Below are positions 1 through 3,000 of a stretch of 18,807 nucleotides of DNA, piece by piece (the first letter of the stretch is position 1; each line of letters begins with the position of its first letter). The position numbers were made by a program. Origin of the DNA: a virus. Lineage: Duplodnaviria; Heunggongvirae; Uroviricota; Caudoviricetes. The stretch lies in IMG/VR virus record IMGVR_UViG_2778261136_000002; one strand, written 5' to 3'.

Positions 1-3000
1 CAGTTGCTGGACAGGGTTTCCCCGTCTCAGTGGGCGGCAATAGGCGTGCTGGGGAGTCTGCTGTTTGGTCTGCTGACATATCTGACGAACCTGTATTTCA
101 AAATCAGAGAAGACCGGCGTAAGGCGGCACGGGGAGAGTAGGTGATGAACCATGAAGAAATGAATCAGCGCTTCAGTCGTCTGGAAAATGAAATTGCTGA
201 ACTGAATAAAAAACTGTCGGCGCTGATGCCTTCTGAAGATGCAAACAAACGCCGCGATGAGCAGTTTGCTGCGTTTGACGATTATTGCCGGAAAGTGATG
301 AGCAGAAATCTCGCAGAGTGTTTCCGTATTCAAAAAAACAGAGAGCGCTCTGCAAATAGTGAGATTCTGGATAATTTTTTAAAGGGGACGCATCTCGCCA
401 GTGATTGTTTCATTGCTCATTCTTTTGGTGGCTTTCATGAGGCCATCAAACATGATGTTGAGAGAAGTCCAGGTATCCTCTGTTCCATTCCCGTAAGCAT
501 CGAAATAGACACAAATACGATAACCGGTGAACTCGTTACCGCCGGAGTCGGTATATTCCGTCATGAGGGGAACGATGCCAAAGGTTCCTTTACAAAAATC
601 GGGCCGTTCTTTCTGAAGGTAGAGCGATAGTTTGTTAAGTACCCATCCGACAGCTCGCTCATTTTGGTTTATTTTCGTATCGCGAAACAAAAATTCGAAG
701 CGGCCAGATGACGCATGGGTGCAACCAAATACCGGGGCGTATTCATCAACCTTTGGTGTTCCTGAAAACATGCAGTCCGTGCTCTCGAATGCAGATGAAT
801 TGCTGTTGATCCACTTAACAAAAGAAAAAAAGGTCTGAATCGCTTGTCTGTCTGAATATTCAACAAAATCCTCAAGGTGTGTCTCGATCAGTTCCGGGTG
901 TTTACGAAAGTCATAATATTGACCGGGACGATATTTATGAGTGGTTGTTTTATCCCATGGTTGTGCTCTGCGTCCCTGTAAACGGAGGTCTGCCGCTGGA
1001 TAGATAAGCATAAGTAATCTCCTGGTGGAATGTAATCCACGATCATCCGGGGAAATTAAGAACCCGCCAGTGCCCACCACTGGTGGGGTGAAGGCTTAAC
1101 ATATCCAGGGATTCGGAACCGATAAATCCTGATAAATATCCATGAACACCAAAATCAAATACGGCCTGTCGGCTGCCGTTCTGGCGCTGATTGCCGCAGG
1201 GGCGCCTGCGCCTGATATTCTCGACCAGTTTCTGGATGAAAAAGAAGGTAACCACACCACGGCATACCGTGATGGTGCGGGTATCTGGACCATTTGTCGT
1301 GGTGCCACCAGGGTGGATGGCAAACCTGTCGTCCCGGGCATGAAGTTGTCGAAGAAAAAATGCGACCAGGTTAACGCCATTGAGCGTGATAAGGCGCTGG
1401 CATGGGTGGAGAAAAACATCCGGGTGCCACTGACTGAACCCCAGAAAGCGGGGATCGCGTCATTCTGCCCGTATAACATTGGCCCCGGTAAGTGTTTCCC
1501 GTCGACGTTTTATAAACGAATTAATGCAGGCGATCGCCGGGGTGCATGCGAGGCGATTCGCTGGTGGATTAAGGACGGTGGCAGGGACTGCCGTATTCGC
1601 TCAAATAACTGTTATGGTCAGGTATCCCGTCGTGACCAGGAGAGCGCGCTGGCGTGCTGGGGAATCGACAGATAAGCAGAATATTTTGCTGAAAAATGAC
1701 GTTGGCCAACGCGGACGGATAACACGAAATCCTGCGAACTGGCAAAACCTCAGTGAATAAAAGTAAAAACCCCGTTTGTTAGCAGCAGGTGGGGTTTTGT
1801 GTTTCCTGACTCCGGAAAAGTCAAAGGAGAAAGTGTGTTTGATTTTAGCAAACTGATTCGGGAGATTTGAGTGATGGCTGAAAAATTATCTACCTGGAAG
1901 TTCATTCTTATCTGGCTGGTGTTTGTGATTATGGTCTCCGGTTATTTCATCGGTCAGATACGCTGGTGGTGAAATGAACCGCGTTCTGTGTGTGGTCATC
2001 ATTGCCCTGCTGGTGGCCTGTGGTGCGCTTAGTCTGGGGCTGAATCATTACCGTGATAACGCCATCACCTACAAAGCGCAGCGCGATAAAAAAGCCAGAG
2101 AGCTGGAGCTGGCAAACGCAACCATTACTGATATGCAGGTGCGCCAGCGCGATGTTGCTGCGCTCGATGCAAAATACTCGAGGGAATTAGCTGATGCGAG
2201 AGCTGAAAATGAAACTCTGCGTGCTGATGTTGCCGCTGGTCGTAAGCGCCTGCGGATCAACGCCACCTGCTCCGGTACCGTGCGTGAAGCCACCGGCACC
2301 TCCGGCGTGGATAATGCAACCGGCCCCCGACTGGCAGACACCGCTGAACGGGATTATTTCATCCTCAGAGAACGGTTGATGACAATGCAGAAGCAGCTGG
2401 AAGGGGCACAGGACTATATCCGCACTCAGTGCCTGAACTAAGTTTTGCTGATGCGCTGTATCGTCGCTGTATTCCCTCATTAACAGAGACCGCAGCCCGA
2501 CAGGGAGACTCCTCTGCGCGAGTGTGCGGGGATAATCAAAAACGATACACACCGGGGTTTACCGCGTTAACGGAGCGCGGTGTTGTCCCCTCATGGTCGC
2601 TGGTCCGGTGCGATGGTGGAAGAAACTGGATTTGTTGCAACTGATAACCATTATCATTTTCGCGGGTCCTTTCCGGCGATCCGGGCCGTTACGGGGCGGC
2701 GACCTCGCGCGTTTTCACTATTTATGAGATTTTTTGAGGGGGGGGGGTTGTTGTTTAATTGTTTGCTATATCTAATTGATAAGTAAGGTGAAAATAAAAT
2801 AAATACAACAACCTTACGATGTGTTTTGATGTCGTCAATGCGAAAAATGTCAATGATATCAAATGGTTTTGCAAAAACACATGGTTGTTGTATCGCTTTT
2901 TATCGATGACTTATGGAGAGGAGATGGCCTTTTTATTGAATAAAAGTGATATGGCCTCCTCCATCGGTATCTCTGTTCAGGCATTTGATAAATGGGGCGT

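Follow-up and report, generated by a model that had tools for sequence, protein, structure and literature searches.

What fills the DNA between the holin and the endolysin gene of IMG/VR virus record IMGVR_UViG_2778261136_000002, and how many genes does it hold? The window studied here, by which we mean the whole stretch of 18,807 nucleotides (nt), is the late region of an Escherichia coli (E. coli) prophage that is lambdoid and of the Shiga-toxin type. In the place in question it carries a reverse-strand open reading frame (ORF) of 210 amino acids (aa), hereafter gene A, whose last third is overlapped in antisense by the end of a forward ORF; this end corresponds to what we call gene B. We find that A is almost certainly a real, mobile and unannotated gene, and the comparison of homologous sequences indicates that B is very probably a selected protein-coding gene nested antisense in A. 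What the pair does for its prophage is a more tentative matter.

Results

Layout of the pair

The original prediction had described the holin, the forward ORF, the reverse ORF, the endolysin and the sharing of triplets between the two ORFs, all of which are present in the sequence when stops, starts and phase are checked. The features of the pair are given below, with the evidence for each in brackets.

379..1011, minus strand: gene A, whose product is a soluble alpha/beta protein of 210 aa from a family without annotation (full-length homologues; AlphaFold2 model)
1019..1023, minus strand: Shine-Dalgarno sequence of A, AGGAG, 7 nt before the ATG (read from the sequence)
358..630, plus strand: gene B domain, ~90 codons, of which those in 379-630 lie antisense inside A on the same triplets; own start lost, AGT in place of ATG (end-to-end alignment with stand-alone B proteins of 89-90 aa)
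142..630, plus strand: chimeric forward ORF of 161/162 aa, made of post-holin start codons, a DUF1327-type C-terminal coiled-coil module and the B domain (ORF list)
178..324, plus strand: module homologous to the last ~50 residues of post-holin proteins of the DUF1327 type (residue alignment, PHROGs)
336..1062, no strand: DNA specific to the A/B cassette, missing from related phages with the same flanks (blastn)

Gene A runs from an ATG at 1011 to a TAA at 381-379; the ORF list would extend it to a GTG at 1080, and its homologues all begin at the ATG. The forward ORF, which abuts the holin stop, runs from GTG142/ATG145 to a TAG at 628-630 with a GGAG ~7 nt upstream. Over 379-630 the two ORFs coincide triplet by triplet (positions 142 and 379 both being 1 mod 3), and ~92% of the B coding sequence falls within that of A, covering A's last ~83 codons.

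Gene A and its homologues

Full-length relatives of A share 39-65% identity overall. A protein search returned five homologues from Salmonella and metagenomes, at 53-65% identity and colinear over 210 residues, and a scan of viral contigs added 17 further loci at 50-56% identity. An exhaustive profile search of 1.84e9 proteins retrieved 251 cluster representatives at E<=1e-3, mostly of 200-230 aa. No relatives came from a pattern scan of genome contigs, and three distant single proteins found no matches among the viral contigs.

The AlphaFold2 model of A, built from a 104-sequence alignment, reached a predicted local distance difference test (pLDDT) score of 95.4 and a predicted template-modelling score (pTM) of 0.91, superseding a single-sequence AlphaFold model with a pLDDT of 39. 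The predicted fold is a helices-on-sheet domain, confident to residue ~204 with the overlapped third included, and the protein is soluble, with a grand average of hydropathy (GRAVY) of -0.54. The idea that the last third of A is non-coding was rejected in light of the family-wide alignment and a pLDDT >94 in that third. The earlier view that the reverse ORF cannot be a shadow across 631-1011 agrees with the finding that it is a real, conserved gene, as shown by homologues at 39-65% identity at other prophage positions and by the model (pLDDT 95).

No family had been recognised for either protein, and our searches agree: A matched none in Pfam, PHROGs, PADLOC or NCBIfam, and B matched none in Pfam or PHROGs and has no DNA-binding domain. 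When 104 members of the A family were compared with Pfam, the sole match was one isolated DUF5659 hit, and PADLOC-DB v2.0.0 held no component model at E<=1 for A or for the forward protein. Fold searches with A returned generic alpha/beta sandwiches only. Against the PDB, Foldseek gave a best E of 6.5e-3 at a template-modelling (TM) score below 0.35, which is no convincing fold match, and against BFVD the model met only uncharacterised jumbo-phage proteins (TM 0.3-0.46), from which no function could be read. Searching the PDB with profiles of A and of B returned nothing. A 210-aa family with 251 clusters, a confident model and no family assignment represents a gap in annotation.

Codon choice and selection in the overlap

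The codons TTA, CTA and TCA of A read as stops in the forward frame. Window A has them at codons 11, 53, 72, 83 and 101 and again at codon 128, a CTA that forms a forward-frame stop, with none in codons 129-210. A hand estimate had put the probability of such avoidance by chance at a few percent. Shuffling synonymous Leu/Ser codons within A gave a computed value close to it, P=0.053 for a stop-free last third, and P=0.20 for an open stretch of that length at any place in A, so the window by itself is only suggestive.

The signal for an open B frame is strong once homologues are compared. Across nine lineages (<=75% nt identity), A carries 5-15 TTA/CTA/TCA codons ahead of codon 128 and lacks them beyond it; the exceptions to this avoidance are L008, with 3 such codons after 128, and L011, with one more at codon 132. 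In L051, for instance, 15 such codons are followed by none in the last 86 codons of A. Per-lineage shuffles across the nine gave P values of 0.0007-0.05, and in a simulation that kept the A protein and redrew its codons, 0/2000 runs left all seven core lineages stop-free.

The boundaries of B are conserved as well. In relatives, B starts at an ATG located 3-11 codons beyond the A stop, preceded by AGGAG, GGAG, GGAGAG, AGGAGG or GGAGG, and its length is fixed at 89-90 aa. Its stop falls at A's invariant Leu128, always encoded by CTA or TTA, and its C-terminus follows the pattern GPF(Y/F)LKVxR or GPFYLK(V/I)xR. Relatives of the window possess what is expected of an embedded overlapping gene (OLG): an antisense frame that lies inside a bona fide gene and carries a start and a Shine-Dalgarno sequence of its own. 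In the window itself the start comes from a fusion. Some annotators already call B as a protein (Enterobacter WP_172751482; a Yersinia 'uncharacterised protein'), and a profile search found a 104-aa form directly after a holin. In Enterobacter hormaechei (P0200), a stand-alone B is named 'DUF1327 domain-containing protein, partial' yet has no DUF1327 domain, a name probably transferred from the E. coli DUF1327-B fusion. Every B profile hit lay inside an A homologue or A fragment, and none occurred without A DNA. The B proteins are soluble (GRAVY -0.1 to -0.45); an antiholin-like membrane protein was considered for B and rejected, as these values go with no hydrophobic segment.

Codon usage in the overlap carries a further mark of the embedded frame. 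In pairwise comparisons among the seven lineages with intact B, identical A residues were encoded by the same codon in a fraction of 0.42 over codons 1-127 vs 0.60 over codons 129-210, a difference never reached by column permutation (0/20000, P<5e-5). Some codons are fixed or nearly so: Leu132 is always CTT, Leu149 always CTC, Pro148 is CCC in 6/7 and Thr151 is ACG in 6/7. Third-codon-position identity of A rises from 0.42 to 0.55, and the rise is confined to the overlap; B identity is 0.49 vs the 0.31+-0.01 expected with constraint on A alone.

The Salmonella locus L008 (6001-6633) provided an internal negative control. There, A is intact in several assemblies and the B frame holds three stops and a frameshifted start, and the same-codon fraction shows no excess (0.41 vs 0.43). 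It looks like a case in which A was domesticated without B. Recombination was considered as a cause of the conservation in the overlap and rejected: amino acid identity of A is alike in the two parts (0.58 vs 0.61), and L008 lacks the effect. Stop avoidance, synonymous constraint and the L008 control together point to purifying selection from the embedded frame. Comparison across lineages supports the overlap unusually cleanly, and such an arrangement has rarely been documented so clearly in bacteria or phages. In four loci (L002, L034, L035 and L053) a frameshift or a partial deletion has damaged A ahead of the overlap, and the B frame is still open; A and B can decay independently.

Origin of the forward ORF

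The forward ORF, a hypothetical protein under the Prokaryotic Genome Annotation Pipeline (PGAP; WP_001457151), is 89% identical to residues 106-263 of a 263-aa DUF1327-B fusion of Stx1a phages. Most E. coli copies are of this 263-aa version, with DUF1327, tail and overlap part. The post-holin gene of related phages codes for a DUF1327 domain at the N-terminus and, after it, a coiled-coil tail. From such a tail comes the N-terminal part of the window protein, which had been judged to be coding: its first ~60 codons prove to be the C-terminal module of a post-holin gene of the DUF1327 type. Alignment of forward residues 12-60 with residues 126-174 of a 181-aa stand-alone protein (L053), which stops seven codons later, gives 63% identity. 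PHROGs 36381, 15975, 1085 and 2091 match forward residues 2-70 only, PHROG 2091 being matched at positions 120-182 of 183 and PHROG 1085 at 117-180. The 181-aa protein has no DUF1327 hit in Pfam and has the same coiled-coil tail. A search of window 142-630 for DUF1327 (PF07041) gave no match; hits at E 1e-34 to 1e-45 were obtained for the 263-aa relative L003 and for the L005-L007 proteins. Compared with the relatives, 354 nt are replaced by 48 nt (window 150-197), and the DUF1327 domain is gone.

Close relatives of window B, at 86% and 76% identity, are stand-alone 104-aa ORFs. In one of them, L062, B starts four bases after a phage-21-type holin; in L053, it lies 100 nt after the complete 181-aa post-holin homologue and upstream of a different holin. 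At the B start site the window reads …NSEILDNF/LKG vs …MEALDDF/LKR in the stand-alone proteins, with AGT replacing ATG. Since its own ATG is lost, window B is translated, if at all, as the C-terminal domain of the chimera.

Downstream of the holin stood an older gene of the DUF1327 type; the cassette entered it at its 3' end, and the DUF1327 domain was later deleted. The original prediction had posed a choice between a true overlapping pair and a moron that truncated an older forward gene. Both alternatives hold together: the forward overlap corresponds to an antisense gene that is conserved in its own right and moves together with the reverse gene, and the cassette sits at the 3' end of the DUF1327-type gene. 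A literature search on the accession, DUF1327 or ydfR found nothing relevant.

Distribution and orientation of the cassette

The insert is AT-rich, as had been stated, with a GC content of 0.44 over 336-1062 vs 0.55 for the whole window. In blastn comparisons with L004-L007, matches were confined to window 1-149, about 196-335, and 1063 onward, the first of these common parts comprising the holin and the first codons of the next gene. L053 and L008 match window 367-1010.

Among 5426 complete E. coli genomes, the cassette (330-1062, >=99% identity) was found in 200 copies in 133 genomes, many of them of Shiga-toxin-associated serotypes (O26, O103, O111, O145, O157:H7, O91, O113). Holin or endolysin DNA was matched in 4351 genomes of the same set, and an uninterrupted or differently filled holin-endolysin junction is thus the norm. 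In most of the 133 carrier genomes nothing is annotated under the cassette by RefSeq/PGAP, and elsewhere only the forward ORF is; gene A is therefore systematically missing from RefSeq annotation.

In enterobacterial prophages, A/B occurs at five kinds of position in late operons:

between holin and endolysin: this window; L062
between Q and holin: L011, L053
between tail genes I and J: L013, L014, L036-L050, L055, L059
beside the tape-measure gene: L051, L052
in a Salmonella prophage remnant beside sodC (A): L008

At every mapped site A opposes the late genes and B is co-directional with them. The cassette is thus mobile, and the orientation rule holds.

Two neighbourhoods are of separate interest. 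In a moron island of a P22-like Salmonella prophage (L011, 9618-11257), an A homologue lies ~3 kb from a Kiwa system (KwaA/KwaB), and in L057 (106-959) one adjoins a Panacea-domain toxin-antitoxin (TA) pair. Both neighbourhoods are defence-island-like.

The lysis region and flanking signals

The surrounding lysis genes are as follows.

1..141, plus strand: class II holin of the phage-21 type, 3' part, the 5' end being cut by the window start (PF04971 Phage_holin_2_1, E 2.8e-21, window 4-141)
1142..1675, plus strand: endolysin with an N-terminal hydrophobic segment resembling a signal-anchor-release (SAR) sequence (PF00959, E 7e-25; N-terminus MNTKIKYGLSAAVLALIAAGAPAP)
1974-2441, plus strand: Rz (PF03245, E 3e-50)
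2194-2379, plus strand: Rz1-type lipoprotein ORF nested in the +1 frame of Rz (ORF list)

Over bases 1-1700 the window matches, at 99.6% identity, a part of strain EH41 that has stx2AB on its upstream side and the genes for terminase, portal and capsid on its downstream side; there RefSeq labels the gene at the place of the holin 'class II holin family protein'. The holin stop is a TAG at 139-141. With a PF04971 holin, a lysozyme-family endolysin with a predicted SAR segment, and Rz with nested Rz1, the region is a phage-21-type lysis cassette in all respects but the adjacency of holin and endolysin genes, which are 1000 bp apart. In related phages the same gap holds a DUF1327 gene, with or without other reverse-strand ORFs. 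In locus L004 (3154-3468, minus strand), a 104-aa reverse-strand ORF lies between the DUF1327 gene and the endolysin, and in locus L005 (2646-2906, minus strand) the same slot holds an 86-aa reverse-strand ORF labelled DUF1823; Pfam searches with both were negative. The holin-endolysin gap is a hotspot for reverse-strand cargo.

A second AT-rich gap, between endolysin and Rz (1676-1973, GC 0.43), has only small ORFs and a strong hairpin with a T-run at 1766-1798; it is another variable slot, because Stx1a phages have an antirepressor gene there. At the far end of the window, the last long tail-gene ORF (17706-18386) is followed by 420 final bases (18387-18807) in which each of the three forward frames is interrupted by stops, and in which no copy of the A/B cassette was found.

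Two candidate signals flank A:

1098..1125, minus strand: candidate promoter of A, with -35 TTATCG, a 16-nt spacer and -10 TATGTT, preceded by ATCAGGAT (inferred from motif conservation)
328..353, minus strand: terminator-like hairpin with a T-run, 26 nt after the A stop (consensus scan; weak, 6 bp)

The arrangement ATCAGGAT…(15-16 nt)…TATGTT, located at 1133-1098 on the minus strand of the window, is kept upstream of A where the neighbour is tail gene J, not the endolysin. Terminator-like sites in the region are no more numerous than in shuffles. Just downstream of the candidate TATGTT promoter, at the cassette edge, lies a perfect 7+1+7 palindrome, CCCACCA-C-TGGTGGG (1073-1087), which may be an operator, an element of the 5' untranslated region or a recombination joint. 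Window 1063-1141 is also found in phages with other reverse-strand ORFs in the holin-endolysin gap and may be a common moron promoter or a recombination joint. An Rfam scan of window 1-2500 returned nothing.

Discussion

The reading that we favour, although it falls somewhat short of being probable, is that of a mobile two-gene prophage cassette in which A would be an accessory or defence function expressed in the lysogen and B its late-expressed antagonist. The parts of this reading differ in strength. Opposite timing of A and B expression seems fairly probable. At all sites B reads in the same direction as the late operon and would therefore be reached by late transcription, being made only when such transcription runs through. 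A, which has its own Shine-Dalgarno sequence, a candidate promoter and a weak terminator, would be made in the lysogen. On induction the late transcripts, being antisense to the A mRNA, would turn A down, an antisense-RNA effect that is possible from the layout. The same transcripts would also yield B, which would bind A or otherwise neutralise it. That B antagonises A is a possibility we hold with some doubt. The outcome would be self-immunity, leaving the prophage's own lytic growth unharmed. In the window, B would be translated as the C-terminal domain of the chimera that starts right after the holin stop.

As for A, a defence, exclusion or lysogen-expressed toxin function is plausible from its context, namely its position antisense to late operons and the proximity of homologues to Kiwa and a Panacea TA pair; we infer a lysogen-expressed accessory function that is probably anti-phage.

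Several observations fit the self-immunity model: the strict orientation rule, the full co-inheritance of B with A, and the Kiwa and Panacea neighbours. The model also fits the loss of B, not A, in a defective remnant (L008) that no longer needs a lytic cycle, and the open B frame beside a frameshifted A in L002, L034, L035 and L053. A further step, which we consider rather unlikely, is that the antidote gene arose de novo by overprinting the effector's antisense strand, so that the same DNA, when read late, would silence the effector and encode its inhibitor. If true, nesting would make the pair inseparable during frequent recombination among tail, lysis and Q-proximal positions.

Other observations weigh against the self-immunity model. 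A has no similarity to known defence or toxin proteins (PADLOC) and no informative fold match, and for this reason the case for a defence role is one of context. A generic sigma-70 scan flagged no consensus promoter for A. B is less constrained than A, and its first codon position is less conserved than its third. Window B has no start of its own, so that its activity hinges on a functional fusion protein, and L011 has no convincing B start nearby and an excess of synonymous conservation that is ambiguous. Lastly, distant non-phage homologues of A (L064, L061) lack the features of B; because of this, B is probably confined to the clade of enterobacterial prophages (A at >=39% identity to window A), within which it may have arisen by overprinting. 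L060 and L061 are too GC-rich for an informative B test.

We weighed three other explanations. The one that survives best, unlikely as we consider it, accepts B as real and A/B as a functional pair and takes the two not to be antagonists: B would be a late-phase partner or alternative module, or else an unrelated overprinted hitch-hiker. The coding and selection evidence for B fits this equally well, as it does not address the sign of the A-B interaction, and the retention of B in the four loci with a damaged A could mean that B has a use of its own. However, B never occurs without A DNA, the strict opposite orientation to the late operon suggests mutually exclusive expression, and B decays in a defective prophage (L008) while A persists.

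A TA or addiction module, with A as a constitutive toxin, B as its antitoxin and the antisense layout coupling their expression, appears improbable. Two small genes moving together on mobile elements would suit such a module, as would the A homologues beside a Panacea-domain TA pair (L057) and beside Kiwa (L011). Yet the genes are convergent and nested rather than arranged in a co-directional operon, and B, which has no promoter context of its own, lies inside late operons that are silent in lysogens, which would leave a constitutive toxin unopposed. Moreover, in L008 several Salmonella assemblies have a destroyed B and an A that is still intact, and neither protein matches PADLOC or TA-related Pfam families.

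Finally, that the forward frame over 379-630 has no functional product, its conservation being due to RNA-level constraint (acting on an antisense RNA or on the A mRNA at its 3' end) or to chance and the window ORF being a read-through relic, is very improbable: the same-triplet antisense frame is indeed the one most prone to long shadow ORFs, the window taken singly gives P 0.05-0.2, and window B lacks its own start and is less constrained than A, but RNA structure cannot explain exact TTA/CTA/TCA avoidance across 7+ saturated lineages (0/2000), the Rfam scan of 1-2500 was negative, and the ATG with its Shine-Dalgarno sequence just past the A stop, the fixed 89-90-aa length with its conserved stop position, and the joint loss of both signals in L008 would all be left unexplained.

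Comparison with known systems

An instance of nesting is present in the window itself. Rz1 inside Rz is the classical case, in lambdoid lysis cassettes, of a gene embedded in another on the same strand, and A/B resembles it in that a gene lies nested inside another in the lambdoid lysis region, wholly so in the case of Rz1, where both products are functional. Rz and Rz1, however, share a strand, with Rz1 in the +1 frame and both genes late, whereas A and B lie on opposite strands and presumably differ in timing. The cassette likewise recalls morons of the lambda bor type, which are AT-rich, self-contained genes in or beside the late region, opposed to late transcription and expressed by the prophage; these classical morons are single genes without a conserved antisense gene inside them. 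A/B does not conform to TA systems of either common type. Type II is contradicted by genes that are convergent and nested and by a B protein without a DNA-binding or other Pfam domain, and type I by the sizes and solubility of the products (A of 210 aa with a GRAVY of -0.54, B of 90 aa and also soluble), neither being a small hydrophobic toxin.

The reality of long antisense overlapping genes in bacteria and phages has long been disputed, mostly on the basis of single-strain expression data, and to this dispute A/B adds evolutionary evidence. Embedded antisense genes such as ano have been described in E. coli O157:H7 (PMC5960689; Zehentner et al. preprint 10.1101/2020.11.18.388249), where the support comes from RNA-seq and Ribo-seq of one strain or a few. 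A/B is like them in that a protein ORF is almost fully embedded antisense in another gene in an enterohaemorrhagic E. coli-type genome. It differs in the nature of its support, which is drawn from sequence and consists of conservation down to 39% identity, synonymous constraint with an internal negative control, and the mobility of the pair. With a conserved B start, stop and length, constrained synonymous sites and a natural knockout (L008), A/B offers a test case, and one that is easy to manipulate, as stops introduced in either frame can stay silent in the other.

Two prophage systems come nearest to the proposed function. In Tha-Ith of Staphylococcus aureus prophages, the protein product of a small antisense gene, Ith, switches off the Tha defence, which is active in the lysogen, on induction (Rostol et al. 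2024, PMC11087260); Tha, a HEPN RNase, belongs to the lysogeny module under the cI promoter, and ith is nested at the transcript level in a noncontiguous operon (PMC11087260). A/B shares with it a small protein-coding gene antisense to the putative effector, in this case inside the A coding sequence, conserved and bearing coding signatures. It departs from it in that A has no HEPN or other known domain (104 members vs Pfam; fold searches) and sits in late operons, that ~92% of the B coding sequence lies inside that of A, and that the roles of A and B are predicted. In BstA-aba, a prophage-encoded form of protection, the antidote is embedded in the effector gene, guaranteeing co-inheritance (Owen et al. 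2021, PMC8585504). The proposed antidote of A/B is likewise physically embedded in its effector gene; aba, however, is a short DNA element and not protein-coding, A is unrelated in sequence, and BstA activity has been demonstrated whereas the role of A is predicted. With no HEPN domain, no BstA homology and a different genomic location, A/B belongs to neither system. If self-immunity is true, the principle of Tha-Ith and BstA-aba would extend to Gram-negative lambdoid phages and would provide a mechanism by which late-operon morons spare their own phage. A/B thus combines known themes, those of morons, antisense overlapping genes and self-immunised prophage defences.

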